64,000 bases of DNA, from contig JAHEHM010000066.1 in assembly GCA_024644585.1 (NCBI GenBank), forward strand, positions 16,479 through 80,478, read 5' to 3'. Under the pieces are notes generated by a model. The model saw nothing but the letters and a program-made list of their open reading frames with translations, had not been told where the DNA came from and searched no databases. This DNA comes from Porticoccaceae bacterium (GTDB lineage Bacteria; Pseudomonadota; Gammaproteobacteria; Pseudomonadales; Porticoccaceae). Made by a program: the position numbers and the translations under genes. Each line of letters begins with the position of its first letter. Positions within the stretch are counted from its first letter, which is position 1. Positions 8,378 through 26,761 of this stretch are shown here, piece by piece.

Positions 8378-8380
8378 TTT

Positions 8381-8454
8381 TGGAGGCGCTGGTCGGAATC
8401 GAACCGACGATGGCGGAGTTGCAGTCCACTGCATTACCACTTTGCTACAGCGCC
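8381..8454 (-). tRNA. cysT: tRNA-Cys (anticodon GCA)
   Basis: The reverse complement is GGCGCTGTAGCAAAGTGGTAATGCAGTGGACTGCAACTCCGCC...GGTTCGATTCCGACCAGCGCCTCCA. The anticodon loop is CTGCAAC. Confidence 0.9.
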
Positions 8455-8626
8455 ACAAAAATGTGGACTTTTAAGAACAGGCTTCGACCAGGTAGGTAGT
8501 CAAAAGCAAGGTGCGCTATTCTAAGGTGTGACGACAATAAATCAACTGTTAAAATCGTCTTTTTTGATATGTCGTCGCCAATTATCAAAGAAACCCATGA
8601 AAACAACTCAAAAAGCAGACTGTTTA

Positions 8627-9208
8627 CTAATCCCCAGTAGATTCTGACTCGGAATCTTTATCGCCACGCATTTCAGGCCACGCCTGCTTAAGATAGACCC
8701 ACATAGACCATAATGCCAAGCCCGCAGAAGCATAAAGCCCCAGATAACCAATAACCGCGAAAGCACCAAAGGTTTTACCGGCGAGCAACAAAAATACAAT
8801 AGCCGCCATCTGCACCCAGGTTTTTACCTTACCTATCATAGAAACAGCCACTTCTTCGCGCAGATCTCTTTCAGCCATCCATTCACGCAATGCAGAAATA
8901 ACCACCTCGCGACCAATAATCACCACGGTTGGCAATGCAAACCAAATAGTGGCGTTAGCCTGAAGCAGCATAATTAGTGCCACAATAACAATTAGCTTAT
9001 CCGCCACTGGGTCTAAAAATGCACCAAAGGGGGTTTCAAGACCCATCTTTCGCGCCAAATAGCCATCTACCCAATCAGTTAACGCCGCCAACCCAAAAAT
9101 TGCCGCCGAAGCAACATGACTCCAACCCCAGGGTAAGTAATAAAGAATAACAAACACAGGGATCATACCGATGCGTAGTAAGGTAAGTTGGTTGGGAAGG
9201 TTCCACAT
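8627..9208 (-). CDS. pgsA: CDP-diacylglycerol--glycerol-3-phosphate 3-phosphatidyltransferase
   Basis: N-terminal NLPNQLTLLRI and the CDP-alcohol phosphatidyltransferase motif DWVDGYLAR...GAFLDPVADK. Conserved uvrC-pgsA-tRNA synteny. Confidence 0.9.
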   Translation of the reverse strand: MWNLPNQLTLLRIGMIPVFVILYYLPWGWSHVASAAIFGLAALTDWVDGYLARKMGLETPFGAFLDPVADKLIVIVALIMLLQANATIWFALPTVVIIGREVVISALREWMAERDLREEVAVSMIGKVKTWVQMAAIVFLLLAGKTFGAFAVIGYLGLYASAGLALWSMWVYLKQAWPEMRGDKDSESESTGD

Positions 9209-9256
9209 GGTTAAAAAGTTCTCTTAATTTAGATCAAATATTTATTTTCAACTAAC

Positions 9257-11773: not shown

Positions 11774-13741
11774 CTAAGCCAATTTTGGAACCGCCAAATC
11801 AGGAAAAGACAGCCTAAAAGCCGTATGCTCACCTAACTCAGACTCACAATAAATATCGCCATCTAGGGCCTGCATGGTGCGCTTGCAGTAAGCCAACCCC
11901 AAGCCTGTGCCGCCGGACTTGCCCGAGGTATAAAAGCTATCAAATAACCTAGAAAGGTTTTCAGGCGCAATCCCTGGGCCCGTGTCGCGCACTTGAATTT
12001 GTCGAGTGGCCAAAAATGTAGAAATCACAATCTCTGCTTTGGGCATATGTTGCACATAATAGAGCGCATTACCAATTAGGTTATAAAGAATATATTTAAC
12101 CAATACTGGGTCGACCAAAATCTGAAAATCACTACCCACAACAGAGACCTTACTCCTGAGCTCAGCATCTTTGTAGGCATAACTAGAAACAGCTTCATGG
12201 CAGATATCTAAGGCAGAAACCAGCTGAAAGTTTAGCTTATCAATGGGCTTTTCATTAATCGCATCCATGGTGATATCGATAATTTGATGACTGCTGTTAA
12301 TCACATCAATAACATCTTCATAATATTCATGAAATTCATCATTGTTTGATTTGTTATGGTTTTTTAGTAGATGAATAGCCCCATGAATTTGCGATAGCGG
12401 GTTACGCATTTCATGAGCGATAGAGCCAGCCAAAGATTTTAAATATTTCAATTTTTCTTCATGTCTAATCGCATTATCTAAAAATATTTTGCTTTGATGA
12501 CATACTGTAGCTAATAGTTTGATATCGTCGCTGTTATATGGCGTTTCGCTCAACCGACTACCTAAAACAATGCCCCCCTCGATACGACTAGATGAACGCA
12601 TAACAAGCACAAGGCTTTTATCATCAAGGCCTACTTCTCTACCATGTAATACATCACTTGAATTCAGAAGTAGATTTTCAACTTTTTTCAACTGATTTTC
12701 TGTAAGTTTTCTATCCTGATCTAATAAGAAAAGATTCTTGTTCTGGAAAGCATAAATTGAAGTATTTTTAATTGACATTGAATCTTTTAAAATCCTAGCC
12801 ACACCCTCAAGAATACTTTGCTTTTCCAATCGGTTTTGAAGGTGCATTAACCTACTCAACACATCCGTTGGGCTATACCAATCAGTGATCCATTTTTTTT
12901 CAGCCGCAGTTTGTAATGCACGACACAATCGTTCGCCATTCATTGCCCAAATAATGCCCATACAAGAATTAGCAATAATAGTTAGCGAACTCAATTGATA
13001 TTCAAATCCATTTATAATCAAAAAACTAAAAATAATCGCACCACAGACAATCAACTGAGATACCGTTCGACTAATCACAGCGCGTATATTAAATAAGTCT
13101 TTTTTAATCATCGCATAGCCAATAATCGTTAGGCTGGAAGCAACAAATAAAATACCCAACGGATAAAACTCAATCCCGTAATTACAGAGATAATCACTGG
13201 CCGCTAAGAAATAAATAAAAACGCTGATTTTGCAGCATTTTAAAATTGCTTTTTTTGGCTCTTGCGCGTTTTTTTCAGCTTGCGAAGCAATAAATAACCC
13301 ACGTAAAACAACAATTATTGTCTGCAGAACATGGATCCAATGTAATGATCCAGCTTTGGGATAATGTCCCCAAAAATACTGATAATAGCCATCGATAAAC
13401 AAGTCCGTGGTTAACAGAAAAATTGTCAAAATCCCACAAAAGACGTATGACAAGTTTATATATCGCCTCTCTTTATAGCTGTCAGATAGCTCTGCTAAAA
13501 GCTGATAGAGACTCGTAGGCAAAAATAAGATTAATAAATAGCCAAAACGAGCCAACGACTCTGAAAGTATTGGCTCTGAAGTTTGAAAAAGGATAGCCCA
13601 GGTTGCCTGCCAGAAAAAAGTAGTTATACAAAGCAATAAAAATGCTTTATGTGGCCGCTTTAAAATATCAGTTTTTTGCCAAAGATAATAAGCAACAACC
13701 AAGAAATAAATCGAAACTAACGCTGGAAGCAATGAATACAT
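11774..13741 (-). CDS. Sensor histidine kinase with a polytopic (about 7-TM) N-terminal domain
   Basis: Multiple N-terminal hydrophobic helices. H-box SIAHEMRNPLSQI. HATPase_c N/G boxes (YNLIGNALYY; DTGPGI; GGTGLGLAYC). Confidence 0.85.
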   Translation of the reverse strand: MYSLLPALVSIYFLVVAYYLWQKTDILKRPHKAFLLLCITTFFWQATWAILFQTSEPILSESLARFGYLLILFLPTSLYQLLAELSDSYKERRYINLSYVFCGILTIFLLTTDLFIDGYYQYFWGHYPKAGSLHWIHVLQTIIVVLRGLFIASQAEKNAQEPKKAILKCCKISVFIYFLAASDYLCNYGIEFYPLGILFVASSLTIIGYAMIKKDLFNIRAVISRTVSQLIVCGAIIFSFLIINGFEYQLSSLTIIANSCMGIIWAMNGERLCRALQTAAEKKWITDWYSPTDVLSRLMHLQNRLEKQSILEGVARILKDSMSIKNTSIYAFQNKNLFLLDQDRKLTENQLKKVENLLLNSSDVLHGREVGLDDKSLVLVMRSSSRIEGGIVLGSRLSETPYNSDDIKLLATVCHQSKIFLDNAIRHEEKLKYLKSLAGSIAHEMRNPLSQIHGAIHLLKNHNKSNNDEFHEYYEDVIDVINSSHQIIDITMDAINEKPIDKLNFQLVSALDICHEAVSSYAYKDAELRSKVSVVGSDFQILVDPVLVKYILYNLIGNALYYVQHMPKAEIVISTFLATRQIQVRDTGPGIAPENLSRLFDSFYTSGKSGGTGLGLAYCKRTMQALDGDIYCESELGEHTAFRLSFPDLAVPKLA

Positions 13742-13805
13742 ATTAAGACTATCCCCTAACTAACGCGGCTATCTAGACTCTCTTTAAGAGAACCCAATTA
13801 TTGCC

Positions 13806-14318
13806 TTACAAAATTTGATAACGCTTAACTTTAGCCGCTACATCTGCAGGCAATTTTTTTATCCTTTTCGTTAAGGAATCAGTATAGACAACCGTTTGAA
13901 AACCTTTTGACACAATTTCACTTTTTTCATTAAAAAACTTAAACATCAAGTCAAAAGATGTATTTTTAAGATTTTCAATATTTAGCTCGCAGTGAATTTT
14001 TTGAAAAGGCAATACCTCTTGTACGTAATCGTTATGCGCAGCTCTGGTTAGGAATGCGCCATCCATTTCAAACATATTGGTGTAGATACACTCCGTAAAC
14101 CACATCTCCCTACAGATACCCTGCCACTCAAAATACCGTGCAAAATAAATATTGCCATAGGCATTTGAATCCTTAAGAAAAGGAGTAAGCTCATAACGAT
14201 AGGTTTGGCGATGCTTAAAAAAATTAGCATCATTCGCCCCAGTCCACATTTCTTTGCTGAGTAAACTGCTAGTGGGTTGGTTTTCAGTTATTTGTTCATG
14301 ATTTAGTACAGTTTTCAT
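13806..14318 (-). CDS. Hotdog-fold acyl-CoA thioesterase-like protein
   Basis: Residues 40-170 resemble 4HBT/YbgC-type thioesterases (DSNAYGNIYFARYFEWQG...). Assigned from motif memory only. Confidence 0.45.
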   Translation of the reverse strand: MKTVLNHEQITENQPTSSLLSKEMWTGANDANFFKHRQTYRYELTPFLKDSNAYGNIYFARYFEWQGICREMWFTECIYTNMFEMDGAFLTRAAHNDYVQEVLPFQKIHCELNIENLKNTSFDLMFKFFNEKSEIVSKGFQTVVYTDSLTKRIKKLPADVAAKVKRYQIL

Positions 14319-14388: not shown

Positions 14389-14601
14389 ACTTAAAATATA
14401 GTGAAGTAATACGAAAGTATGTGATGGGGTTTGTTAGCGAACAGTTTATTAATTTAATTGTGAAAATAATGAAATTTAGAATATAAATTTAGTTTGGACA
14501 TGGAAATTGATTAAATTTAAGAAATGCACCTATCAATTAACACCACCAAAACCCCAAAACTAAGATAAAATAGCCACCTAATTACAAACAGCCTTAAAAG
14601 T

Positions 14602-14655
14602 ATGCCAATCAATAGAAAATTCTGCGTTGCCCCAATGATGGATCGGAACGATTAG
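14602..14655 (+). pseudogene. dusA: Orphaned 5' fragment of dusA (17 codons, MPINRKFCVAPMMDRND*)
   Basis: AATAGAAAATTCTG..GCCCC.ATGATGGA is shared with the 5' end of the intact dusA at 25802-25836. The reading frame diverges after MMD and stops. Confidence 0.8.
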
Positions 14656-14682
14656 CAATAAAATCAATGGATTAAAATGGCA

Positions 14683-14710
14683 TGGTGCAAAAATGGTAAC
14701 AGTGCCAGAG
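14683..14710 (+). repeat. 28-bp island-border repeat, copy A (TGGTGCAAAAATGGTAACAGTGCCAGAG)
   Basis: Matches copy B at 25 of 28 positions, and copy C with a 1-nt gap. It sits 28 nt after the dusA relic stop. Confidence 0.8.
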
Positions 14711-14743
14711 GGGGTCTAGAATAGCCCGTTTCAACTTTTTTTC

Positions 14744-15538
14744 TCACCCAACACCACAAATTTTCTCTTTTAAAGAAACTAAAACTGCATCTCTATTAAA
14801 ATCGCCCACATGAATACTGAGCGCGGTATTGGGTTTCTGTTCAAGTAAATACTTAACCAAAAGTCTGTTTTCGGCATAATACAACTGAGGCACCCTAGCA
14901 TTAGTCCTATTATCTCTAGCACAGATATATCTAACCGTATCATCCTTTGAAATTGTCGATTGCCCACGAACATTTTCTGCATAGCCCTCGGCTATCCAAT
15001 CAGGTGTAAAAAGTATTTTGATCAACCCAACGGTATTACGCTGATCGGTATGTGTAGCCTCGTGCGCGATTATTCCTGCGATCTCGCTAGTCTCACCATT
15101 ATTTAACATTGAAAAGAAGACTGAAGGTCTAAAATAGATATTGAATATATTCACCGCAATAGGAGGGTTATCCGTAAAGTTTATTGCCAAAAAAGAAAAG
15201 AAACGATCAGATGGGGGTAAATATATTTTATACCTTGTTTCTGAATTATTAAGCGGGCTTTGTCTTAAAAGTTCACTTGAATGCTCAAGGATTTGACTGA
15301 TCTGTTGAGGAGAAACATCAGACAAGGCATAGAAATCAAACCGATCATTAGAATAAATTTTTTGAAAATATAATGGGGAAAACAACACAATTAACGCGTA
15401 GCTGTATACGATAAACCCGATAGCTAATTCAAATAGCGTATAAATCGATTTTTTCCAAGTTGAAAAAGGCTGATTGCCTTTTCTAAGAGAACGGAATGGA
15501 TGCAGCCAAGATAATATTCGGAATAAGATTGAACGCAT
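14744..15538 (-). CDS. Membrane-anchored hypothetical protein with an HExxH zinc-metallopeptidase motif
   Basis: One N-terminal TM helix (LFELAIGFIVYSYALIVLF) and the motif IIAHEATHTDQ. I recognise no further family. Confidence 0.5.
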   Translation of the reverse strand: MRSILFRILSWLHPFRSLRKGNQPFSTWKKSIYTLFELAIGFIVYSYALIVLFSPLYFQKIYSNDRFDFYALSDVSPQQISQILEHSSELLRQSPLNNSETRYKIYLPPSDRFFSFLAINFTDNPPIAVNIFNIYFRPSVFFSMLNNGETSEIAGIIAHEATHTDQRNTVGLIKILFTPDWIAEGYAENVRGQSTISKDDTVRYICARDNRTNARVPQLYYAENRLLVKYLLEQKPNTALSIHVGDFNRDAVLVSLKEKICGVG

Positions 15539-15811
15539 TTAAAACGCCTAAAAAAATTTAATGTGCTATTGGTGCATAGATTTTTAAAAATAAAGCGTAA
15601 AAAACATAGTTTAACGCCAAATCCTGCCACGGTAACTCAACAAAAGTCAGCCTGATCGAATCAACACTAACAGATACCATTGTTATTAATTTCTAATTAA
15701 TAATAGACCATGCATGATGATTGGTGTGCCATAAGCCCGATGATCCCGCCAATTCTTCGCAACTAGTCTACAATTTCAGTATTGCAAGCAATACAGATTC
15801 AAGGAAGAATA

Positions 15812-16702
15812 ATGGCGAAGCCATTTACCATTAAGCTCTTTATGCCAAGCGGCAATGCCAATGAGCTAAAGCTTATCGAAAAGATGAACTGGACAGGGCT
15901 GGGGATGGAAATATCCCGCACGGCATGGCCGACACACCGCAAGCGTGAAGAACTGCAACAGGCGGGTATCTATATACTAGTGGGCTACGATGATGATGAA
16001 GATTTGCCCTGCCTATATATTGGGCAAGCCGATGGCATTAAAAATCGATTAGAAAGTCATTTTAAAAATAAATCATTTTGGGACAGAGCATTAATCTTTG
16101 TCTCCAGTAACCAAGGCCTAAACAGAGCGCATATCACATGGCTAGAATGGGCACTCATACAAAAAGCCCAAGCCATCGGGCGTTGCAAGCTAGATAACAC
16201 ATCAATACCCAATGAACCGCGACTAACCGAATCAGAGCGAGCCGATACACAGGAATTTTTACACGAAATACTCAGTATTTTGCCATTGGTAGAAGTGACC
16301 GCCTTCGAAAAAGCGCAAAAGATAGAACAGCAAAATACACCACAGCAAAAATCGTCCAATGAAAATACCATTGTCGTACCCGCCAATAAAGGGGGTTTTG
16401 AAAGGGTATTTTTGGGGGAACATTGCTGGTATGCCGTACGGATCGCCGGTGGCAGGCTTGAGCAAATTAAATATATTGCTGCCTATCAAACCGCACCTAT
16501 TTCGGCTATTACCCATATCGCCGAAGTGGCATCTATCGAACCCTATGGGGATGGGAAAAAATACAAACTATACTTCAACGCGCCCGCTAGACCTATTGGG
16601 CCGTTAAAGCTAGGAAATACTCATAAAAACTCGATGCAAGGTCCTAGGTATACCAATAATATTGTTCTGAATAATGCACGGGATATGGGGGATGTTTTTT
16701 AG
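15812..16702 (+). CDS. GIY-YIG nuclease family protein with a DUF4357-like C-terminal region
   Basis: GIYILVG...LYIGQADGIKNRLESH...NRAHITWLEWALI is the GIY-YIG core. The start is moved from the TTG at 15782 to the ATG at 15812, which has an AAGGAAG RBS 5 nt upstream. Confidence 0.7.
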   Translation: MAKPFTIKLFMPSGNANELKLIEKMNWTGLGMEISRTAWPTHRKREELQQAGIYILVGYDDDEDLPCLYIGQADGIKNRLESHFKNKSFWDRALIFVSSNQGLNRAHITWLEWALIQKAQAIGRCKLDNTSIPNEPRLTESERADTQEFLHEILSILPLVEVTAFEKAQKIEQQNTPQQKSSNENTIVVPANKGGFERVFLGEHCWYAVRIAGGRLEQIKYIAAYQTAPISAITHIAEVASIEPYGDGKKYKLYFNAPARPIGPLKLGNTHKNSMQGPRYTNNIVLNNARDMGDVF

Positions 16703-16726
16703 TTAGCAGTTGGAATGATCCTTGGT

Positions 16727-16754
16727 TGGTGCAAAAATGGTTACAGTACGAGAG
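16727..16754 (+). repeat. 28-bp island repeat, copy B (TGGTGCAAAAATGGTTACAGTACGAGAG)
   Basis: Lies between the convergent genes ending at 16702 (+) and 16773 (-). It marks an internal module junction. Confidence 0.8.
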
Positions 16755-16772
16755 ATCGGTTTTTCACTACAA

Positions 16773-17459
16773 TTAAACAAACTTTTCAAGAAAATGAAGA
16801 CCTTGCCCTTCGACACCCCCAGTAAGAATTATCTTAGGAATAGCATTTTCTGAAGCCCAAACGATTGCTAACTGACCAAACTGGCTAGCAAGGCCTATGG
16901 CTTCGCCACAGGTTAAGCCCAAAACACACAAACTAGGTTCTGCTGGCCACTGACTGTCGCGGTCTTTACCTTCGCCATTAAAATACAGGGTTTCTCTGGT
17001 ATCTAAATAACTTATTAGCTGTTGTTGATATTCTTGGTTCGCTTTTTCCGTTACTAACTGACCATCTGGGTTATAAGCAGTAATAAATGTGCAAGTTGCC
17101 AACTTATTAAATCTGTATAACTCCAATAGCGTTTCTGATTTTTTACCTATATTAAGCACAAACTGCTGGCCGCGATCATTCACAATATAATCTGTTTGCA
17201 AGTAATCATTTAGTAACTGTTTAGAAAAACCAGCTAAATCATTCTGAATTGAATTTATAATTAATTGTTTTTCATGGCTAAGACGCATACCAATATTCCT
17301 ACCTAAACCATGTCGAAAGGCATCGAGCTGATCGTCATTCATCAACTCTATATCCTCAACCGAATAACCATATCGATTGAGGACGTCCTTATAAGCAGCT
17401 TTTATTCTTGGGTGTCCGCGCAGGTCTTCGAAAGTGGGTATGTAACAGAAGTCATCCAT
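16773..17459 (-). CDS. Hypothetical protein with a DUF3293-like C-terminal domain; last gene of the five-gene operon
   Basis: The C-terminal half has FITAYNPDG...N...W..EPS...FGQLAIVW, the pattern I associate with DUF3293. The N-terminal ~100 aa are unassigned. Confidence 0.45.
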   Translation of the reverse strand: MDDFCYIPTFEDLRGHPRIKAAYKDVLNRYGYSVEDIELMNDDQLDAFRHGLGRNIGMRLSHEKQLIINSIQNDLAGFSKQLLNDYLQTDYIVNDRGQQFVLNIGKKSETLLELYRFNKLATCTFITAYNPDGQLVTEKANQEYQQQLISYLDTRETLYFNGEGKDRDSQWPAEPSLCVLGLTCGEAIGLASQFGQLAIVWASENAIPKIILTGGVEGQGLHFLEKFV

Positions 17460-17474
17460 AACAATAACTAAAAC

Positions 17475-18446
17475 TTAATAATTCAAACTCTTATCAAGGG
17501 CGCACAATTCCTTAAATTGCTGTTCAGTTTCAATAATTAAACTTAATCCATCACGCCATGCACTAATTTTTATTTCAGTCGAAAATTTGCCCTGTACATA
17601 ATCAAAATCTTGCGCATCACCGCCTAGTAAATAGACATTAACGTACTTATTTCTGAAGAAAAAAGTGATATTGTCAAATTTATCAAAGTTACGTTTAACA
17701 TGAAGAAAACGCTTCCTTGATGGATCACCAGCCTTAATTTTTTGGCACATTGCTATCGCTTTGCCTGCAAAATCATATTCACAACCTGCAATTACATCAT
17801 CCCAGCTAACGTCTACATTGGTGTTTATTTTTTTACGGCTAGATTTTCTTGATTCGTAGGCATCAGAAAGTTCTCGCAAAGGATATCGTTGGTCCACGGT
17901 TAAAAAGCTTTCGTCACCATGACGATGAATATCTAGCGCATAGGCATAAATACTTACAGAAAAACTTGTCAGCCAATCGGCAGTGACTATTACCTCTGGA
18001 TCAAAGCTTTCAGCTATTAAAATTATTTTAATATCAGTATTTAAATCATTAGATTTTACGATACCTAAAAGCTCTTCATAATCATCAAGCTTGTGTTTTT
18101 CTATTTGCTCAATAACTTTTTCTTTGTTCCATTTAGAAACCATCGCCGCATATGAAACAGCTTGTAAAAGTTGTAGTTTATTCTTATCGCGCTTGAGCTC
18201 GATAACTACCAGGGACGAGTCATCGGAATCGTAGGCCAATAAATCTAAACTATTTTGCGTAGAGCTATCTGGCGTGATTTCTTCACCAATTAAAAAGGCC
18301 GAGGGCAACCCCAGTTCATTCTTAAAAAGCTCCCATGAAGAAATAATAGATTTCTGCAAGTTATAACGCTCAAGAATATTGTTCTCTTTGAGAGTGCTTT
18401 TTGCCACTGGTTCAAATATGGAATTAGACTTATTAAATTTTAACAA
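17475..18446 (-). CDS. PD-(D/E)xK nuclease, NucS/DUF91-like N-terminal domain with an unknown C-terminal domain
   Basis: ERYNLQKSI...LGL...IGEE...LDLLAYDSDDSSLVVIELKRDK...LLQAVSYAAM matches the NucS-type D...(D/E)xK core and its surrounding pattern. Confidence 0.6.
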   Translation of the reverse strand: MLKFNKSNSIFEPVAKSTLKENNILERYNLQKSIISSWELFKNELGLPSAFLIGEEITPDSSTQNSLDLLAYDSDDSSLVVIELKRDKNKLQLLQAVSYAAMVSKWNKEKVIEQIEKHKLDDYEELLGIVKSNDLNTDIKIILIAESFDPEVIVTADWLTSFSVSIYAYALDIHRHGDESFLTVDQRYPLRELSDAYESRKSSRKKINTNVDVSWDDVIAGCEYDFAGKAIAMCQKIKAGDPSRKRFLHVKRNFDKFDNITFFFRNKYVNVYLLGGDAQDFDYVQGKFSTEIKISAWRDGLSLIIETEQQFKELCALDKSLNY

Positions 18447-18466
18447 ACCAACCTAACCTCAATTGT

Positions 18467-19657
18467 TTAATTATTAATTTTTTCCAATAATCCAGTTTTA
18501 ATATTAAACCCATAATTTAGAAGAGTTCCATTCCTTAGCTTATCAACGGCTTCTTGAACAGTTTCTACTGGAACACAAAACCATTCTTTTGGATGATAAG
18601 TTTTACCAAATCTATCAGGAATCTCTATTTCCAATCTGGCAGATGCAAATACTTTGTGCAAAAGAGTTTCTAGCTTATGCCGATTTATGTTGTATAACTC
18701 AAAGCTTGCAACCAGATCCGCCTTGGCAAATAAAAAGGTTGGATCATTCTCAGCCCCAGACAAACGTATTGATGGGTCTTTGCTTGTAACTCCAATCTTG
18801 TGGACGTTTTTGGAGTTATCCCGAATCAAAGGGTGGCTTGATTGGCTTCGACAAACATAAATTACTCCACTCGCAATATCATCCTCATGAGGCTGATCAT
18901 CAAACAATGGTCCCATACTAATATCTGTGATTCGTCTGCCACCTTCGTCTTCCCATAATCTCTTTTGAAGTGATCGCATCAACTGATTACTTTCAACACC
19001 ATTATCAAAAATAATACGCAACCGATATTCCTTTCTACCATCAGTCCCTATAAACATTTCACCGATATCAGCCACATAGACCTTTTGCCCGCCAAGAATA
19101 AAAAGATTTTCTTTCTCTATCGTTCCATCCTTTACAAATGGGATTATCTTTCTTATACCACTTTCTATATCAGCTTGAATTTTTTCAAAAAGAGGCTTAA
19201 AAATATGAAAATCTTTGCAAGGTGTTCTGGTGCCAACTTCGTCTGCTGGCTTAATTTCTGAACGTGGCTTGACATGTTTAAGTGAAGTAAGATCATTATC
19301 AGTTTTAGTATTGAAACCAAGCTCTCCCAACAGTGCCTCATCATCTAAATCTTCTTCACTAATTTTTGAAATAAAACTCTCATTAAGAAGATCTTGATAA
19401 TCACTGTCTTTGAGTAACTCAACACAATCAGCTTGTTTACGTATTTGCTCCAGACGCGTGGCATATAAACGCTCAAATATATCTTTTTCATGGTCGAATG
19501 AAGGCACTCTATTTTGCTCGTCTACAAACTTCTGTATCTCTTCAAAACCAGCAATTACACGCTCTTCTTTTGCAGATAAGGCAGGTTTTTTCTTAACCTC
19601 ATATTCAATACCCAGCTCAGCAATAAGCTTGTCATCTTCTTCCGTAAATTTAGCCAT
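18467..19657 (-). CDS. T5orf172 / MUG113 (GIY-YIG-like) domain protein
   Basis: The C-terminal domain reads GVIYVCRS...VHKIGVTSKDPSIRL...LETLLHKVFASARLEI...PKEWFCVP. The N-terminal ~250 aa are unassigned. The start overlaps the helicase stop by 8 nt. Confidence 0.65.
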   Translation of the reverse strand: MAKFTEEDDKLIAELGIEYEVKKKPALSAKEERVIAGFEEIQKFVDEQNRVPSFDHEKDIFERLYATRLEQIRKQADCVELLKDSDYQDLLNESFISKISEEDLDDEALLGELGFNTKTDNDLTSLKHVKPRSEIKPADEVGTRTPCKDFHIFKPLFEKIQADIESGIRKIIPFVKDGTIEKENLFILGGQKVYVADIGEMFIGTDGRKEYRLRIIFDNGVESNQLMRSLQKRLWEDEGGRRITDISMGPLFDDQPHEDDIASGVIYVCRSQSSHPLIRDNSKNVHKIGVTSKDPSIRLSGAENDPTFLFAKADLVASFELYNINRHKLETLLHKVFASARLEIEIPDRFGKTYHPKEWFCVPVETVQEAVDKLRNGTLLNYGFNIKTGLLEKINN

Positions 19658-21734
19658 TTTGTTTCGCCTCAGCTACCATTTGCGCAAAGGCATTCATACC
19701 CTCGGCAATCTTCTTTTCCCATGGATCATTAGAGGTTACTTCCGGCTTTCTACCACGCTCTTTCAAAAATTGTCTTGCCCTTAAAGCATAATCTCTAGCC
19801 TCCTCATGGGTGAACTTTTGCTTCTTGCCAGCAATAATATTTCCGAACTGCCTAAGGCTTTCTTCACTCATAGACTTTGACAGGATGGCATAAGCTTCTC
19901 CAAATGGATTAATTCGATCAATAAAGTCCACATCTAAGCTTGTTACATCCATAACAAATTGCCTAACTCCATCTACAAATGCTGTATTTGACGAAGGCTC
20001 GCCATCACCAACATCAATAGATTCATTTTGACCTTGTTCATTTATTGCCTTTTTAACCTGTTGGGTCATATTTACAGCTGCCACAGCATGCTGACGAATT
20101 GCTTCCTGATCCTCATCGGGCAGATTAGGATACTTAGTGGCAACAATTTTTCCCATAGCCACTTGGGTTATTTCCTCTGGAACTACTTCGGTATCAAATA
20201 GGCCGCGTTCAACTGTTCTAGTATCCTGCGTAAACGCTGCAACCAAGTCATTAAGATCATCTTTAACTATTCTTTGAGCCTCTTCGCTTTTTGGCTCTGC
20301 CAACCCTGTAATCTCAATTTGAATTTGCCCTGTATCTTTGTTTACACCCACATTAGTTTTATCTGGATTATAACCGCCATCGCCATAATCAAACCCATCT
20401 ACAGGACCGCTTGTTGCTGTCTTAGGCGTAAAATCAAATCTTGGCGCTAACACCTGCTCCATAAGCAAACTTGCTGCAATCGCTTTTAGAGTGTCATTAA
20501 CGGCATCTGTAACTGCATCTTTAGCGGCATCGGGTTCAGCGATAAGATTAGTAAATCGCGTGCGCTCTTTACCCGGTGCATCACGAGTTGTGCGGCCAAT
20601 TATTTGCACTATTTCTGTCAGACTTGCGCGGTAGCCAACAGTCAGTGCATGTTCACACCAAATCCAGTCAAACCCTTCCTTAGCCATTCCGAGTGCAATA
20701 ATGATATCCACATAATCTCGATCACTCTCCATTAAAGGAGATCTAAGACCCACTTGAACTTTTGCACGTTTACTTCCATCATCTTCTACTAGGTCCGCTA
20801 CCTTGATAATTTTTTTATCCGATCGCCTTTCAATTAGGTGAAAACCTGTTTCCTCATCAACACCCATCCAAGTACCAAGCTCTTCGAGGATATCTTCTGT
20901 TTCTGTTAACTTTCCTCTTTTAGTGCTTTCCCGAGAGTTTACATTAGGAATATGAATGATCGTTTTCTCGTGAGGATCGAGAACCTTAAGAATATCGTCA
21001 ACATAGGGACCATTGTAAAAGTAATACCCAATATCTAACTCTTTTAAATACTCATATCCATTTAACTGCTCATAATAGGTGTAGGTTACGGTTTCAAATT
21101 TAGCTTCATCATCAGGGGTCATTACCGCATCAGAATCACCACGAAAATATGATCCTGTCATAGCTACAATATGAACTTTATCCCTTGCTAAAAATTCTTC
21201 TAACTGATTGCCCAAAACGTTGTCTGGATTAGCACTTAGATGATGGAATTCATCAATTGCAATTAATCGATTATCAAATACCTCAATACCAAATTTTTCC
21301 ACAGCAAATCTAAAAGTCGCATGGGTACAAACTAGATTGGTGTCATCACTGTCAAGAAAGGCTTTGACTGAATTAACCTTCCCACCGTCCTCACCCGGTG
21401 AATTACAGAGGTTCCATTTGGCTTTAACCTGCCAATCTGACCAAAAACCATATTCACTAAGTGGTGTATTATCAAAGCTTTTACCAATAGATTTTTCAGG
21501 GACCACAATAATCGCTTGCTGGATACTCTGATTAACAGTTTTATCTAATGCAAGAAACATCAAGGCTCGGCTTTTTCCAGATGCAGGTGGTGATTTAATT
21601 AACAAATATTGCTCACCGCGTTTCTCATAAGCACGCTCCTGCATCTCGCGCATACCCAACTCATTAGACTTCTTTGATTTTCCAGTTGAGTCATACTTAA
21701 CAGAGACTGTTGGTATTTCAATTTCCTTATTCAC
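19650..21734 (-). CDS. SF2 DExH-box helicase (ResIII-like) with no recognisable nuclease domain
   Basis: Motif I SPPASGKSR, motif II AIDEFHH, motif III MTGS, motif VI QIIGRTTRD. 4-nt overlap with the upstream methyltransferase gene. Confidence 0.8.
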   Translation of the reverse strand: MNKEIEIPTVSVKYDSTGKSKKSNELGMREMQERAYEKRGEQYLLIKSPPASGKSRALMFLALDKTVNQSIQQAIIVVPEKSIGKSFDNTPLSEYGFWSDWQVKAKWNLCNSPGEDGGKVNSVKAFLDSDDTNLVCTHATFRFAVEKFGIEVFDNRLIAIDEFHHLSANPDNVLGNQLEEFLARDKVHIVAMTGSYFRGDSDAVMTPDDEAKFETVTYTYYEQLNGYEYLKELDIGYYFYNGPYVDDILKVLDPHEKTIIHIPNVNSRESTKRGKLTETEDILEELGTWMGVDEETGFHLIERRSDKKIIKVADLVEDDGSKRAKVQVGLRSPLMESDRDYVDIIIALGMAKEGFDWIWCEHALTVGYRASLTEIVQIIGRTTRDAPGKERTRFTNLIAEPDAAKDAVTDAVNDTLKAIAASLLMEQVLAPRFDFTPKTATSGPVDGFDYGDGGYNPDKTNVGVNKDTGQIQIEITGLAEPKSEEAQRIVKDDLNDLVAAFTQDTRTVERGLFDTEVVPEEITQVAMGKIVATKYPNLPDEDQEAIRQHAVAAVNMTQQVKKAINEQGQNESIDVGDGEPSSNTAFVDGVRQFVMDVTSLDVDFIDRINPFGEAYAILSKSMSEESLRQFGNIIAGKKQKFTHEEARDYALRARQFLKERGRKPEVTSNDPWEKKIAEGMNAFAQMVAEAKQNG

Positions 21735-24511
21735 GATGCGCTCTCCATATTATTACTGATAGTTGATGAAGTCATTTTAGTGTACAGCTCAAAGAGTTTT
21801 TCTAATCGCTCTGTATCATTATTAAAACGACGACCGATATAAATACGCTCTATGGTTTCGTCATTTTTTTCATGAGCCAACCTAAGATCCTCATGCATGG
21901 ACTTGTTATGATCATAAAGCTCTGCAATCGTTTCCGGGAAATGCTTTTCACGTGCTAGAAGAATATCTTCAGCACAGCGTGTTAAATCTAATTTATTTTT
22001 TTTGGTTAGTTTTGGAACGGGAAAAGTATTGTAGCAAGTAGATGAAGTATATCTGAGATCGTCTTTTAACTTTCCAGCTATAGCCCTAACCCACACCATG
22101 TGAATTCTTGAAGATATAATAGAAAAAGTATCTAACTCAGCATTTTGAATAATGCTTGCTGCGTTGCTTATTATAACTTTATCATCCATATAACCCGCAG
22201 TGATAAATGCTCTTTTTTCAGAGAACACAGTTGGAACAAGGATTTGTTTTCCTTTTTGCTTATTTATCCATGCAAATTTATGAGGCCTACCAACAGCAGT
22301 TTTTGCCCTAGTTCCTGCATTAATTCTAAAATCACGAACAGAATCTATTCTATTTTTTATTTCCAAGCACTTCAGAGCACTATTTAAGTCACCATCGTCA
22401 ATCCAGATACACCACCTTAAAAACCCCTTAATAAATTCATTAGAACCATAGTATGGTTTTACAAAACCAGAGTAAGTTCCATTTTGTTGCCTTGAAATAT
22501 TACTTGCTGATGACCTGTCTAAAATAAGGTTTCCCCCATCTAATGCTCCACTCCCATCTGTTATTTTGGCACTTAAAGATAATGGGAATTTAGCTTCGGA
22601 AACTACTATGTTTTTTCCACTCAACAAGTAGGCATTTATATTATTAACCTCTCGAACACTGCATTTGCCCTCTTGATTTAACTCAAAGATTTTTTTTGAT
22701 TTACTATGATTACTTGTTACACCGATCACCACTACAGAAACACCAGCATTGGAACTTGCCAAGTTAGACCACTTAAATGACGTGTGAGCAAAAAATATTC
22801 TTTGTTCTCTCTTAAAAATGAAGGGCCATAACAAGAATGCTTGAACACCCTGACAAATGGAATTGGTCGTTACAAATGCGTAGTCTGCGTGACTATATGT
22901 ACAGTATTCACTCGCTTTAAATAGCCAGCCAGTCACATAGTCCAATGGCTTCCATTTTTTTATTTCTTTGGATAATATTTCACCTAATTCTTGCGTTTGC
23001 TCTTTTGTTCTCCAACTGCTTCCCTTGTAAGGTGGATTTCCACAGATGTAGGTCTCTCCACCCTCATTCTCGAAATCTATTTGAGCCTGATGTTGTGGCT
23101 TATGGAATAAATCATCGGATATATGCTCCACAATTTTTTCAGTCGGTGGACATACACTTAACCAATCAATTCTTAGAGCGTTACCATGAACTATCCAGTT
23201 TTTGGAATCTAAAGGCAGAAAATCTGCTAGTGCATCTTTCTGCCCGCGATACAATTCATCACACTGATATTCAGCAATAATTAGTGCCAAACGTGCTATC
23301 TCAGTAGCAAATTCTCTTAACTCAATCCCTCTAAAATTACTAAGCGGGATTTCTGATTTAAGATGCGTTTCATGCCTTCTTTTATTAATTTCAGATTCAA
23401 TTTGACGCATCTCTTTATAGGCAATAACCAAGAAATTGCCTGAACCACAGGCGGGGTCGAACACCCGAATTTTTGAAATTCTTTTTCTGAGGTTAAGAAG
23501 TTTACGGTGGTTATCGCCCGCTTCTTGGAGGCTTTCTCTTAGATCATCGAGAAATAACGGATTAAGCACCTTAAGAATATTGGGGACACTGGTGTAGTGC
23601 ATACCGATTGAACCCCGCTCTTCATCATCAGCAACCGCTTGGATCATAGAGCCAAATATATCTGGGTTAATCTCCTTCCAGTTTAAATTACCTGCATGGA
23701 TCAAATAAGACCGTGCAATTCGACTAAACTTGGGAACATCTCGATTACCTGCAAATAAGCCACCATTTACATAAGGGAAGTCTCTGGTCCAATTGGGAAG
23801 GTCTTCCATATCTCTATCTTCACGCTTAACATCCATTGCATGAAATATTTTAGAAATAACAAAATCAGCATTCTCAGAGCGACTATCACTCATCTGCTCT
23901 ATAGCGTGTGTAAACATATCTTCTTTTGGGAAAATACCTGTGTCTTCAGCAAAGTAGCAAAAGATTAAACGTGACATAAACTGATTAAGGTCATGCCTGC
24001 GCTCTGCCGTATCCCAGTCTTTATTTTCTTTTAGCAGCTCTACATAAAGCCTATTTAGACGCCCTGTTGCCTGAATATCAACAGCATTATTGCGGATTTC
24101 TTTGGTGGTAGTAATGCCAGCTAACGTAAGAAAGAAGCCAAAGTGGTTAGCAAAGTCACTGTATGCACAGGCCACAGTCTCGCCTGAATTTAAATCCTCA
24201 GCTACAAATTCAACACCATCAGTGGCAAGAATAATCTTCACCTTGCCTTTTATGGTTGCGGGGCTTTGTTTTAGCTCGATTAGAGTGTTATTTGCATCAC
24301 CTTCAGCACAAACAGCAATATGAATATTATCACGCTGAAGGACGCCGCCACTAATATCTGAACTGTTAGAAGAATTTTTTGCACTTCGAAGTTTTTTTAT
24401 TGTAGTTTCTTTATTTCCAAGGGCTTTCAGAAATGCGAATGGAAACTCAGTCACATCAAAATCTTGCATTGCTAGATGTGATACCGCTTCTTCAATTTCT
24501 ACAGCATTCAA
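21731..24511 (-). CDS. MmeI-family (type IIL/IIG-like) N6-adenine DNA methyltransferase with an N-terminal PD-ExK-like region and a C-terminal TRD
   Basis: 926 aa. RLIFCYFAEDTGIF spacer-domain signature, SIGMHYTS, motif I VFDPACGSGNFLV, motif IV GNPPYKG, and N-terminal D..(x)..IELK. TTG start with an AGGAAA RBS. Confidence 0.8.
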   Translation of the reverse strand: MNAVEIEEAVSHLAMQDFDVTEFPFAFLKALGNKETTIKKLRSAKNSSNSSDISGGVLQRDNIHIAVCAEGDANNTLIELKQSPATIKGKVKIILATDGVEFVAEDLNSGETVACAYSDFANHFGFFLTLAGITTTKEIRNNAVDIQATGRLNRLYVELLKENKDWDTAERRHDLNQFMSRLIFCYFAEDTGIFPKEDMFTHAIEQMSDSRSENADFVISKIFHAMDVKREDRDMEDLPNWTRDFPYVNGGLFAGNRDVPKFSRIARSYLIHAGNLNWKEINPDIFGSMIQAVADDEERGSIGMHYTSVPNILKVLNPLFLDDLRESLQEAGDNHRKLLNLRKRISKIRVFDPACGSGNFLVIAYKEMRQIESEINKRRHETHLKSEIPLSNFRGIELREFATEIARLALIIAEYQCDELYRGQKDALADFLPLDSKNWIVHGNALRIDWLSVCPPTEKIVEHISDDLFHKPQHQAQIDFENEGGETYICGNPPYKGSSWRTKEQTQELGEILSKEIKKWKPLDYVTGWLFKASEYCTYSHADYAFVTTNSICQGVQAFLLWPFIFKREQRIFFAHTSFKWSNLASSNAGVSVVVIGVTSNHSKSKKIFELNQEGKCSVREVNNINAYLLSGKNIVVSEAKFPLSLSAKITDGSGALDGGNLILDRSSASNISRQQNGTYSGFVKPYYGSNEFIKGFLRWCIWIDDGDLNSALKCLEIKNRIDSVRDFRINAGTRAKTAVGRPHKFAWINKQKGKQILVPTVFSEKRAFITAGYMDDKVIISNAASIIQNAELDTFSIISSRIHMVWVRAIAGKLKDDLRYTSSTCYNTFPVPKLTKKNKLDLTRCAEDILLAREKHFPETIAELYDHNKSMHEDLRLAHEKNDETIERIYIGRRFNNDTERLEKLFELYTKMTSSTISNNMESAS

Positions 24512-24532
24512 CTTGAGATTTTCCTGTTTTGG

Positions 24533-24549
24533 AGAATTTTATAAATTCT
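24533..24549. promoter_or_regulatory. Inverted repeat AGAATTT-TAT-AAATTCT overlapping a TATAAA -10-like box just upstream of the methyltransferase start
   Basis: 7-bp arms with a 3-nt spacer, 22-38 nt upstream of the TTG at 24511, in the 58-nt gap after the Sel1 gene. Confidence 0.3.
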
Positions 24550-24569
24550 AGAAATTATTGACTAAAACT

Positions 24570-25436
24570 TTACAATTTTCGTCTTTTCTTATTACGCCTG
24601 TAGATAAAGTAGGGCAACCAAATAAGAATAACAAGCTTGGGAATTGCCCCGCCAATATTAAAAGCAACACTTCTACTAGGATCCTGAATCCAGAACAATA
24701 ACCAACTATCTAGCCATTCATGATCAAATAAAAGATATTTACTTACTATCTCTCGAGCATTCAAATCACCTTGTTTTGAAGCCTCACGAAGCCAATCAAT
24801 TGCTTTATGCTTGTTTTTATCAACACCCCAGCCATATAGGAACGCGAGTCCAAGATTTAAATCTGCCTCGACTAGCCCATGCCCGGCAGATTCCTTAAAA
24901 AGCTGGAATGCCTTTGCATCATCCCTTTCAACGCCAGTTCCATTTAAAAAGAGTTGACCTAAATTAACCTTGGCTTCAATCAAACCTTGTTCAGAAGCTT
25001 TTTTAAACCATTTAGCGGCCTTAACCTCACTTTTATCTATACGAGAGCCATACAGGTACTCTACACCAAGATTGTACTGAGCTCTATCAAGCCCCTGATT
25101 CGCAGCAGCTTTAAGCCAATTTATTCCATCAGAGTCGTTTCTTTCAACACCGATGCCTTGCATCAGCATAATAGCTACACTGTATTTCCCAATTACGTTA
25201 CCCTTTTCGGCAGCTTTCAAATACCAATAAAAAGCCTCTTTTTCGCTCTTGGATACATCATCTCCATAAAAATATTTTCGACCCAAAGCCGCTTGAGCTT
25301 CAACATCACCGCCATAGGCTTTACGTTGTAGGTCATCTATTTGCATTGAAAAACAATTATTTACGAAAAACCCCATAGACAAAATTATGTAAGTTATGAA
25401 CTTTTTCAAGTAAAGGTGAGAGAATAAATCATTCAT
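24570..25436 (-). CDS. Sel1-repeat (SLR/TPR-like) protein with an N-terminal signal/anchor and a C-terminal TM helix
   Basis: At least five repeats of the A..W..KAA.QG...A...LG type. Hydrophobic N-terminus. C-terminal IPKLVILIWLPYFIY followed by RRNKKRRKL. Confidence 0.75.
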   Translation of the reverse strand: MNDLFSHLYLKKFITYIILSMGFFVNNCFSMQIDDLQRKAYGGDVEAQAALGRKYFYGDDVSKSEKEAFYWYLKAAEKGNVIGKYSVAIMLMQGIGVERNDSDGINWLKAAANQGLDRAQYNLGVEYLYGSRIDKSEVKAAKWFKKASEQGLIEAKVNLGQLFLNGTGVERDDAKAFQLFKESAGHGLVEADLNLGLAFLYGWGVDKNKHKAIDWLREASKQGDLNAREIVSKYLLFDHEWLDSWLLFWIQDPSRSVAFNIGGAIPKLVILIWLPYFIYRRNKKRRKL

Positions 25437-25673
25437 AATAAAATTGTTTTCATGTTTAAATACCAGCGCAAAGATTACATGTAAAATTTTTAAATCTCTA
25501 TATAACTATGAATAAAAATTCTAAGTAATAGTTTTAAATAGTATTTAATTAAAACATGGAAATAATATTCATGGCCTTGAAATATTTTTTAAACAACCCA
25601 CAATTTTAATCTATCTAATATAAAATAGCCTAAAAACTAAATTCCCACCTACGTCCTGCCAAAAAAAATGGTA

Positions 25674-25695
25674 ACAAAAATGGTACAGTGCCAAA
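25674..25695 (+). repeat. Island-border repeat, copy C (ACAAAAATGGT-ACAGTGCCAAAA), preceded by a partial extra AAAAATGGTAACA
   Basis: Same orientation as copies A and B, about 105 nt upstream of the dusA ATG. Confidence 0.7.
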
Positions 25696-25706
25696 ATGAG
25701 TTAAAA

Positions 25707-25765
25707 TTATAAAAGATTATAAATCGTTATAAATCAATGATTTAAAACGTTATAAAAGATTATAA
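25707..25765 (+). repeat. Two copies of the 16-bp direct repeat TTATAAAAGATTATAA (43-bp spacing) plus additional (C/G)(G/A)TTATAAA units; candidate recombinase arm-type sites
   Basis: Exact copies at 25707-25722 and 25750-25765. CGTTATAAATCAATGATTTAAAACG lies between them, and a related AAATCAATGGATTAAAA occurs at 14661-14677 near the left junction. Confidence 0.5.
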
Positions 25766-25798
25766 GAAATTATGTAAAGTTAGGCTAAGTTATTGAAA

Positions 25799-26761
25799 AT
25801 GAATAGAAAATTCTGTATCGCCCCGATGATGGACTGGACTGACCGCCACTGTCGCTATTTCTTGCGCCTGATTAGTCAGCATACGGTGCTGTACACCGAG
25901 ATGGTGACTACCGGTGCGATTATCTATGGCGATGCCCATCGTCATTTGCAGATGCATGAAGCAGAGCAACCGGTGGCTTTACAACTGGGGGGCAGTAACC
26001 CCGCCGATCTGGCGAAGGCGTGCAAGATTGCTAGCGACTATCACTACAATGAAATTAATCTTAACTGCGGTTGCCCCAGCGATCGGGTGCAGAATGGTAT
26101 GTTTGGCGCGATTATGATGAAGCATGCGCAGACTACGGCAGACTGTGTGAAAGCGATGGTGGATGCGGTGGATGTGCCGGTGACGGTTAAGCATCGTATT
26201 GGCGTGGATGATTTTGATTCTTATGAGTTTTTGACGGACTTTGTGGGCACTGTGGCTGATACAGGGTGCGAGACTTTTATTGTGCATGCGCGCAAGGCAT
26301 GGCTTAAGGGCTTAAGCCCAAAACAAAATCGTGAAATTCCTGAGCTTGATTATGGGCGGGTGTATCAGTTGAAACAGGATTTCCCTGAGCTTGAGATTAT
26401 TATTAATGGCGGCATCACTGACTTGGAGCAATCTAAACAGCATTTGACGAAGATTGATGGGGTAATGATTGGTCGAGAGGCTTATACTAACCCGTATTTG
26501 CTAGCGGACGTTGATCAGCAAATCTACGGCAGTAAAAATTCTATGCAAAGTCGTAAAAAAGTTGCTGAAGAGTTCATCCAATATGTGGATAATGAACTCT
26601 CTCAGAATATTAAACTCCAATCTATGACGCGACATATTTTGGGACTTTTTCATGGCATGCCTGGCGCAAGACAGTTTAGACGACATATTAGTGAAAATGC
26701 CCACCAACCTAACGCCACTATTGATGTGTTAATAGAGGCTTTGGCTAAGACAACAGGATAG
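25799..26761 (+). CDS. dusA: tRNA-dihydrouridine(20/20a) synthase DusA (intact)
   Basis: [23 protein letters not shown] plus an FMN-binding TIM-barrel. The ATG at 25799 is preferred over the TTG at 25793. Confidence 0.9.

Follow-up and report, generated by a model that had tools for sequence, protein, structure and literature searches.

An integrase-less, defence-type island at the 5' end of dusA in a SAR92-clade bacterium, probably derived from phage-type dusA elements

Results

The island separates a dusA relic from a rebuilt dusA

We analysed a 64,000-nt stretch of the genome of a marine SAR92-clade (Porticoccaceae) bacterium (assembly GCA_024644585.1, contig JAHEHM010000066.1, positions 16,479 to 80,478), which we call the window and number from its first letter. 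The 5' end of the gene dusA in this window carries an island of 11,191 bp. We found that the island has attachment (att) cores of the kind used by published dusA islands, that a split phage attP forms its two ends, and that it encodes no recognizable integrase. The best explanation, to which we give a probability of about 0.85, is an integrase-less, att-arm-only defence island, similar to a cis-mobilizable element (CIME) and derived from phage-type dusA elements. Contigs and loci used for comparison are cited by L numbers.

Translation of positions 14602-14655 (+) yields MPINRKFCVAPMMDRND followed by a stop. The first 14 of these 17 codons are native dusA codons (MPINRKFCVAPMMD), and RND and the stop are read from element DNA. 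In relatives the native DusA N-terminus is MPINRKFC(V/I)APMMDWTD, which is identical to that of the relic and continues into the gene body. The relic is still joined to the native dusA upstream region with its promoter and 5' untranslated region (14537-14601, +), where positions 14543-14601 are 84-90% identical to the dusA upstream sequence of L003, L004, L006, L019, L166, L167 and L168. A promoter-like match, TTAACA-18-TAAGAT at 14537-14566, is no better than chance.

The live dusA lies at 25793-26761 (+), starts at TTG 25793 or ATG 25799, and matches the Dus family over its full length (Pfam PF01207, 3.9e-95). The element contributes its start and the codons as far as PMMD, and the remainder is native; from 25798 on it aligns to relatives at 80-98%. 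In a DusA protein scan with one genome per species the best matches, 89-98% identical, belonged to the SAR92 clade and Porticoccaceae. Relic and live gene share one 41-nt direct repeat (14607-14647 and 25798-25838) with 83% identity and a spacing of 11,191 nt. In the 64 kb there are exactly two occurrences of the degenerate 32-mer AATAGAAAATTCTGYRTYGCCCCRATGATGGA, compared with 0.00 expected from 100 shuffles.

The site without the insertion is present in close relatives. In the sister species L003, L004, L006 and L019 the counterparts of 14543-14652 and of 25798 onward form one unbroken native dusA, in which the relic's promoter and MPINRKFCVAPMMD run straight into WTDRHCRY. By exact look-up of the neighbouring transaldolase gene (tal) we recovered contigs of the same species, and two of these, L167 and L168, also have the empty site, with 96-98% nucleotide identity across dusA-tal. 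We found no relative with the same 11 kb that lacks the dusA duplication. Exact-protein look-ups returned only fragments of the same strain (L001 and L162-165), and DusA itself had no record.

These results bear out most of what the initial annotation of this DNA had proposed. It had described a dusA relic and an intact dusA at the two ends, and its coordinates and strings were correct. It had predicted that an empty site would join about 14600 to about 25840, as is seen in all six contigs (L003, L004, L006, L019, L167 and L168). Its proposal of site-specific insertion into the 5' end of dusA agrees both with these empty sites and with the att cores, which fit the published target of dusA-associated integrases. 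The element does supply a replacement 5' end, namely a new start codon and the first 11-13 codons, and the native 5' end is stranded as the relic. The replacement promoter was also part of that proposal, and here the search was negative: promoter-like matches upstream of the rebuilt dusA were no more frequent than in shuffled sequence. The element-borne promoter of the rebuilt gene is putative.

Two observations concern assembly breaks at this site. Short-read Logan contigs of the same strain (SRR12825405/7) end at 14572 (L001), 14635 (L165), 14676 (L164) and 25690 (L162/L163), all within or near the att arms, and L162 and L163, which come from two samples, share their last base, which falls within the P-arm repeat. 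Such breaks would be compatible with the presence of the arms in other sequences of the samples. The closest genome contig, L002 (SAR92 metagenome-assembled genome, MAG, JABBBH010000069.1; DusA 98% identical), starts at dusA residue 10, which is the att core. This start points to a break in the assembly at the site, brought about by sequence that is variable or repeated.

The att cores match the published dusA target

The dusA islands described by Farrugia et al. 2015 (PMC4482086) and, in the form of Vibrio integrative and mobilizable elements (IMEs), by Durand et al. 2021 (PMC8409611) target GCNCCNATGATGGA within the first dozen dusA codons, and the island studied here has the same target. 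The left copy of the imperfect direct repeat is the attL core (14607-14647, +), TCTGCGTTGCCCCAATGATGGATCGGAAC, whose left part is native dusA and which from TCGGAAC onward is of phage attP type. The right copy is the attR core (25798-25838, +), TCTGTATCGCCCCGATGATGGACTGGAC, which lies inside the element-supplied dusA start and contains TGTATCGC, an element-type sequence as found in phage attPs. Both cores align base for base with those of Acinetobacter baumannii D1279779, where attL is TCAGTAGCCCCTATGATGGATTGGAC and attR is TCAGTGTAGCTCCAATGATGGACTGGAC (Farrugia et al. 2015 supplement, PMC4482086). The crossover codon is the same as in a Vibrio islet (L055) and in phage attPs with the core CCGATGATGGA.

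Between the phage-like TGTATCGC of attR and the phage-like TCGGAAC of attL lies (G/A)ATGATGGA, which is common to native dusA. Because the two flanking strings match phage attPs and ATGATGGA is shared with native dusA, strand exchange probably took place within ATGATGGA (14635-14642), in dusA codons 9-12. The empty-site contig L168 also has TGTATC (FCIAP), and so the polymorphism alone is not decisive for the position of the crossover.

In the published islands the integrase adjoins the rebuilt 5' end of dusA, which the island replaces (PMC4482086). The integrase is the sole gene common to all 94 surveyed islands, all of which were found through it; PrtN/RdfN occurs in about 64%, the mean island size is 42.6 kb and the conserved site is about 21 bp (PMC4482086).

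The two ends of the island are the halves of a phage attP

Inward of the dusA core we found a second direct repeat, ATGGTGCAAAAATGGTAACAGTGCCA on the left and ATGGTAACAAAAATGGTACAGTGCCA on the right, with a score reached in 0 of 1000 shuffles. A scan of viral contigs with this motif returned three contigs (L172-174). Each encodes an integrase 33.5% identical over 355 amino acids to the canonical dusA-adjacent integrase of L074, and in each the region about 120 nt upstream of the integrase start reads, without interruption, P arm, dusA-like core and P' arm. A second viral scan with the pattern AAAAATGGTACAGTGCC gave three further contigs (L175-177) that have no integrase, dusA or arm context and are apparent chance matches.

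Alignment to these phage attPs places the P arm of the former attP at 25663-25797 (+). It contains a conserved TTATAAATCGTTATAAATCA block and the repeats AATGGTAACA at 25667 and AATGGTACAG at 25679. Over positions 25663-25827 the identity is 87.9% across 165 nt to L178 and L173 (E 1e-54 to 1e-57), 82% to L193 and 76% to L195. The P' arm is at 14648-14738 (+), with repeats ATGGTGCAA at 14682 and AATGGTAACA at 14692. Here 14607-14736 shares 80% identity with the attP of L192-194 across 130 nt, and 14661-14738 shares 77% with that of L178 across 79 nt. Thus about 135 nt at the right end (P) and about 90 nt at the left end (P') are of attP type, and on the right side the similarity to phage attP begins only at 25663.

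Homologues of the integrase identified sister phage types with the canonical core CCGATGATGGATCGG and the attP TTGAAAATTAACAGGAAATTTTGTATTGCACCGATGATGGATCGG. The dusA mimic in the phage attPs has a TTG start followed by K-(M/I)..., reading TTGAAAATTAACAGGAAATTTTGTATTGCACCGATGATGGA, and the TTG at 25793 of the live dusA is conserved in them. One phage type continues GGAACGATTATCAATAAAATCAATG, which is nearly the relic junction of the window, GGAACGATTAGCAATAAAATCAATG, and the junction GGATCGGAACGATTA(T/G)CAATAAAATCAATG is common to the sister phage types and the relic. The commonest type (integrase P0001, about 38.3 kb; L172, L173 at 2780-2830, L174 and L178-185) has the core CCCATATGCCATGGG, not CCGATGATGGATCGG, and ATA instead of ATG or ATT after the TTG.

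The phage contigs recur at 37-39 kb in many metagenomes, always in the attP configuration. They encode a DUF2800 exonuclease, an Enc34-type single-stranded DNA-binding protein, a family A polymerase (PolA), an SNF2 helicase, a Prim-Pol and a CI-like repressor, together with ejection and structural proteins. GenBank phages are at most 40% identical to them in integrase and polymerase, and one member of the cluster is in an 'Alphaproteobacteria' bin. A homologue of the integrase that is 39% identical occurs in Spartinivicinus ruber, divergent to dusA-tal and with PrtN and prophage genes alongside; for this reason we regard the phage integrase clade as genuinely dusA-associated. A podovirus from a SAR92 single cell has been described (PMC4611503).

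Paired arm repeats are kept at the phage offsets

We rebuilt the attP of the island by joining the left of attR to the right of attL. In the rebuilt site the P arm has its repeats at -154 and -142, and the P' arm at +51 and +62, counted from the core. Across four phage types the P repeats lie between -155/-143 and -153/-141, and in three of the four the P' repeats lie between +50/+61 and +52/+64. The sequence of the repeat varies by phage type (AATGGTAACA, GTGGTAACAC, GGGGTACAC or TTTGTACA) and is the same in both arms within a type. Integrase arm-binding sites would be expected to show this pattern, and we consider it probable that the paired repeats are such sites.

In the island the core is kept, and so are the four proximal arm repeats, each at its phage offset. 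A distal P site at about -230, present in every phage attP, is absent from the window. What is retained extends from roughly -155 to +95 around the core, a span comparable in size to a functional lambda-type attP. In the A. baumannii D1279779 element, TGGTGTAAT repeats are in the equivalent place (PMC4482086 supplement).

Between the arm repeats and the core, at 25700-25775, the window has a block of TTATAAA-type repeats (GATTATAAATCGTTATAAATCA...CGTTATAAAAGATTATAA) that is kept in all phage types (e.g. L192 and L195). It may hold sites for an accessory factor similar to integration host factor, or promoter sites. Two other roles for the arm repeat were considered and rejected: folds of both strands gave z values of -1.2 to +0.2, which do not support an RNA structure, and no terminator-like site was found.

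The integrase and all phage genes are missing

Pfam searches of all eight open reading frames (ORFs) of the island found no Phage_integrase, PyocinActivator or recombinase domain. As positive controls we used L074 (Halioglobus) and L032 (Haliea), both of which have an integrase gene divergent from dusA; a PrtN homologue is present in L074 as well. With the dusA-adjacent integrase and the PrtN of L074 as queries, tblastn and phmmer --max found nothing in the window at E<=10 beyond noise, and the same PrtN query did detect the PrtN of the Vibrio islet L055. The intergenic DNA of the island, about 820 nt in total, contains no integrase remnant and no coding room. A crude regular expression for tyrosine recombinases had no match in the six frames of the window.

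The position next to dusA, where phages and canonical islands have the divergent integrase, is occupied by a gene for a Sel1-repeat protein. Between this gene and the P arm is a non-coding spacer of 226 nt (25437-25662; 22% GC) that has no similarity to phages and whose longest stop-free segments are of 44 amino acids or less. This spacer is where the integrase gene of the phages and their distal arm site (-230) would be expected.

A search against PHROG returned only a generic helicase and two families of unknown function, and no phage structural, replication or lysis genes in the island. The island proteins gave no tblastn match to the phage loci. Hallmarks of phage satellites of the PICI or P4 kind (integrase, replication initiator, and capsid- or packaging-hijack genes) are likewise missing from the island's Pfam and PHROG families. 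The integrase, the directionality factor and every phage gene are therefore absent from the island, and since it has no integrase it falls outside the dusA-island family as that family is defined.

The cargo is of defence type

The eight ORFs are tightly packed, and six of them form a minus-strand operon that occupies 25436-16773. The operon opens with the gene for the Sel1-repeat protein (24570-25436, -; Pfam Sel1, 2e-45). The Sel1 gene is followed by an MmeI-family type IIL/IIG methyltransferase-type enzyme that resembles DnmA/YeeA (21731-24511, -; five MmeI Pfam domains; PADLOC REase_MTase_IIG, 7.6e-273) and aligns to MmeI itself (PDB 5HR4, 1e-126) from residue 93 on. Next come a YeeB-like superfamily 2 (SF2) helicase (19650-21734, -; ResIII and DEAD Pfam matches) and a YeeC-like T5orf172-domain protein (18467-19657, -; Pfam T5orf172, 1.9e-14), with overlapping stop and start codons at 21731-21734 and 19650-19657. 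The operon ends with a PD-(D/E)XK nuclease-like, PDC-S11-like protein (17475-18446, -; PADLOC PDC-S11, 1.3e-26; YhcG_C at 9e-5, below the Pfam cut-off) and a DUF3293 protein (16773-17459, -; Pfam PF11697, 2.6e-18).

Two genes lie outside the operon. One encodes a PDC-S14-like defence candidate with a weak GIY-YIG signature (15782-16702, +; PADLOC PDC-S14, 1e-59; phrog_12629, 8e-37; Pfam GIY-YIG, 0.003). The other, at the left end (14744-15538, -), encodes 264 amino acids with a hydrophobic N-terminal segment and an HEATH (HExxH) motif and is a putative membrane metalloprotease, with sub-threshold matches to Peptidase_M48 and DUF1570 only. It has no PADLOC or PHROG match and is the sole island ORF without a family. 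We considered it as a possible recombinase and rejected it, as the Pfam search at high E-values gave an HExxH protein instead.

The order of the MmeI-family enzyme, SF2 helicase and T5orf172 protein in one operon is that of DnmA-YeeB-YeeC in Bacillus subtilis and Vibrio crassostreae (PMC9973331). In contrast to that system, the island adds the Sel1 gene upstream and the PD-(D/E)XK and DUF3293 genes downstream. DnmA-YeeB-YeeC gave no phage protection in B. subtilis, and its deletion raised phage sensitivity in V. crassostreae (PMC9973331). Family membership suggests that the cargo of the island may act in defence.

More than 590 metagenome stretches, drawn from very different environments, contain homologues of the helicase with 67-89% identity. 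We counted neighbourhoods in 80 loci (L082-L161) from one scan with the helicase as query. The helicase and T5orf172 genes are adjacent in 80 of 80 loci, with the MmeI gene also present in 69, and none of the 80 is next to dusA. The search for sibling islands through the cargo was thus fruitless; the module is promiscuous and silent on the island backbone. The conservation of the helicase/T5orf172 pairing (18467-24511) is unusually strong for a defence-type module.

The cargo offers one alternative source of mobility. Several of the island proteins are nuclease-like and functionally uncharacterised, and an unrecognised recombinase among the HExxH, PDC-S14-like, T5orf172, PD-(D/E)XK or DUF3293 proteins would make the island self-mobile. 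We consider this very improbable. The att sites are those of the tyrosine integrase family, the arm repeats are common to phages that encode that integrase, and the helicase, T5orf172 and MmeI genes have no link to dusA in the 80 loci. To our knowledge no nuclease of these families performs conservative site-specific recombination.

Base composition and the left flank

The GC content of the island is 37.9%, compared with 44-45% in the core genome, and the GC content at third codon positions is 0.27-0.33 in most island genes versus 0.43-0.49. The initial annotation had described the interior as AT-richer than its flanks and as carrying only accessory genes. The second statement agrees with the Pfam, PADLOC and PHROG results. 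The first holds against the core genome and fails against the 2.5 kb on the left, which are equally AT-rich (37.1%). This adjoining segment (11774-14318, left of the relic) encodes a histidine kinase of 655 amino acids and a 4HBT_2 thioesterase. Because these genes are as AT-rich as the island, low GC does not mark the left border; the att site does.

The kinase/thioesterase segment is a second variable segment and has no att sites. It is absent or replaced in L004, L166, L167 and L168: L004 is without it, L166 has a kinase of 411 amino acids and KAS III, and L167 has KAS III. In L003 a 225-nt kinase remnant is found. We also considered uvrC-dusA as a general island hotspot and rejected this, as distant relatives hold ordinary metabolic genes there and no relics.

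Given this variability in the clade, with an AT-rich kinase/thioesterase indel that is separate and lacks att sites, the island might be thought to have arisen without site-specific recombination, either through local duplication of dusA's 5' end or through illegitimate recombination filling a flexible uvrC-dusA hotspot. However, the duplication ends exactly at the published crossover of the dusA-associated integrase (DAI) islands, the sequences downstream of the relic and upstream of the new dusA are both phage attP arms, and the empty sites are precise. We regard such an origin as the least likely of the explanations weighed here.

An internal arm copy and other integrase-less inserts at dusA

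Inside the island the P'-arm repeat occurs a third time, as TGGTGCAAAAATGGTTACAGTACGAGAGATCG at 16727-16758 (+), in the gap separating the convergent PDC-S14-like and DUF3293 genes. This copy is 89% identical to 14683-14710; to the phage P' arm it is 90.6% identical across 32 nt, with the following GAGNGATCG included, and its score was reached in 0 of 1000 shuffles. It suggests that 14648-16726 and 16727-25797 may once have been two tandem elements, the second of which probably has this copy as its left arm, and that the island is composite. A degenerate dusA core beside 16727 was considered and dismissed, as alignments to the attL of the window and to that of L166 were no better than shuffles (180/500 and 282/1000).

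Inserts at dusA that lack an integrase are also found elsewhere. In L166, a contig of the same species (JGI 3300048106, Ga0494402_000672; 8210-9073), a frameshifted relic lies about 650 bp from an intact dusA, with one hydrophobic ORF of 89 amino acids between them. The relic junction, GGATCGGGGG, matches the P0002-type phage and is followed by the P'-like sequence AATGGCGCAC...AATGGTACAGT. In L055, a Vibrio sp. MAG (NZ_JBLWZK010000002.1, 5210-9983), relic and dusA are 4.7 kb apart and enclose PrtN/RdfN, a helix-turn-helix regulator, a BpuJI-type restriction enzyme and two C5 methyltransferases, with no integrase. Therefore integrase-less inserts at dusA are not unique to the window.

Further features of these sites were noted. 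About 60 nt upstream of the intact dusA of L166 are native-like, which is unusual, and about 105 nt are duplicated; a 22-nt stretch of the same contig (8851-8872) matches window positions 15749-15770. In L051 (Methylococcaceae MAG, 9449-9850) only residues 33-171 of a dusA-adjacent integrase are detectable, and this is possibly another decaying element.

Discussion

Proposed origin of the island

Our data are best explained by the following history. A DAI-family tyrosine integrase would have recombined dusA codons 9-12 with the attP of a temperate phage of the uncultured kind, about 38 kb in size, described above. That attP carries a mimic of the dusA start, and through it the gene would have received a start and upstream region from the element, with the native promoter and 14 codons left stranded 11.2 kb away as the relic. 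Only the two attP halves (25663-25797 and 14648-14738), each with its pair of arm repeats, would have survived. Every phage gene, the integrase and any directionality factor included, would have been lost, and defence-type cargo, presumably in two joined modules, would have come to stand in their place. Such an island would be unable to excise or integrate alone and would be kept as a chromosomal defence island that is polymorphic in the population. Its spread would depend on homologous recombination in the conserved flanks or, with lower likelihood, on the borrowed integrase of a related incoming phage.

Several observations weigh against this explanation. The attP core of the P0001 phages is altered, with ATATGCC for ATGATGG, and these phages may have an integration target other than dusA or a degenerate site. 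SAR92 genomes yielded no full-length prophage of the phage family integrated at dusA; all recovered phage contigs are in attP form. The exact parent is not in hand, and the arms are only 77-88% identical to known phages. The arms are also mosaic, with a junction like that of the P0004 type and repeats like those of the P0001 and P0002 types. No att core lies beside the internal P' copy, and the two-element history is drawn from 32 nt. Finally, only 64 kb of the genome are in view, and a cognate integrase elsewhere in the genome is possible.

Present-day mobility

Within the preferred explanation the present state of the island can be read in two ways. In the more probable one, which we favour by a little over even odds, it is an immobile fossil of one or two phage-type dusA elements whose genes were deleted and replaced, and it moves only by homologous recombination in the uvrC and dusA-tal flanks. 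The flanks of island-bearing and empty strains are 96-98% identical, and exchange by recombination would thus be possible. The 650-bp stump and frameshifted relic of L166 indicate that decay occurs at this site, and L051 has a truncated dusA-adjacent integrase. The island itself has neither an integrase nor a recombination directionality factor (RDF), lacks the distal P-arm site at -230, and has arms only 77-88% identical to any phage seen. The att arms would then survive only because little time has elapsed. However, the similarity to phage attP begins and ends close to the outer arm repeats with all else replaced, and the four proximal repeats are intact at exact offsets; neutral decay is not obviously expected to spare just the arm sites.

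The second, which we put forward as a tentative possibility, is that the island is a cis-acting, CIME-like cassette that depends on phages. It would be excised, and perhaps reintegrated or co-transferred, with the integrase and directionality factor of a phage of the same family. The retention of the core and of paired repeats in both arms at phage offsets is consistent with this, and accretion of elements at a shared site, the mode of CIMEs (PMC6323972), is suggested by the third P' copy. Integrase-less, att-flanked inserts recur, as in L166 with the junction of another phage type and in the Vibrio islet L055, and related phages are abundant in metagenomes. Against this, excision as a circle with restoration of native dusA is putative, the empty sites in the population being indirect evidence only, and the distal P site is missing, there is no packaging or transfer function, and the link of the phages to the present host is drawn from sequence. 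Moreover, mobilisation would require a match between the island and the integrase type of the incoming phage, and the arms of the island are mosaic.

Relation to known systems

The island resembles published dusA islands in its target, its imperfect attL/attR repeats, the rebuilt dusA 5' end with a native relic, its restriction-modification or defence cargo, and arms homologous to elements that encode a DAI-family integrase (PMC4482086, PMC8409611). Unlike them, it has no integrase and no PrtN/RdfN, it measures 11.2 kb compared with a mean of 42.6 kb, and only its attP arms tie it to the family.

Like CIMEs (ICEberg 2.0, PMC6323972), it has no integration or transfer genes, keeps attL and attR and shows a sign of accretion in the internal arm copy, and its mobilisation would depend on the arrival of a related element at the same site. 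In contrast to CIMEs, the cognate elements are temperate phages and not conjugative elements, mobilisation is putative, and one distal arm site is missing. The island also shares a phage attachment site, attL/attR bounds and the loss of lysogeny and lytic functions with defective prophages. Unlike these, it has no phage gene left, and its interior is an intact, tightly packed defence-type operon and not a set of decaying phage genes.

Significance

Att-bounded islands without a recombinase exist at dusA with intact defence operons, and integrase-based surveys therefore undercount dusA inserts. We think it doubtful, as a broader proposal, that integrase-less, att-arm-only dusA cassettes are, rather than debris, recurrent phage-dependent passengers that retain no more than the core and arm sites bound by the integrases of a temperate marine phage family, and that are excised, shuffled into tandem arrays and moved between SAR92 genomes on the arrival of such a phage. 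If this were true, integrase-based surveys would miss a whole class of elements, of which the L166 stump and the L055 islet would be further members.

The paired repeats at fixed offsets, which covary with integrase type, define probable arm-binding sites of the integrase. Since the ends of the island are those of a phage attP, they provide a sequence-level link between uncultured temperate phages of about 38 kb and SAR92-type dusA, and thus a lead for host prediction in an abundant clade that is hard to culture. If the island can be moved in trans, it would be a simple natural case of defence-cassette shuffling driven by a phage integrase.

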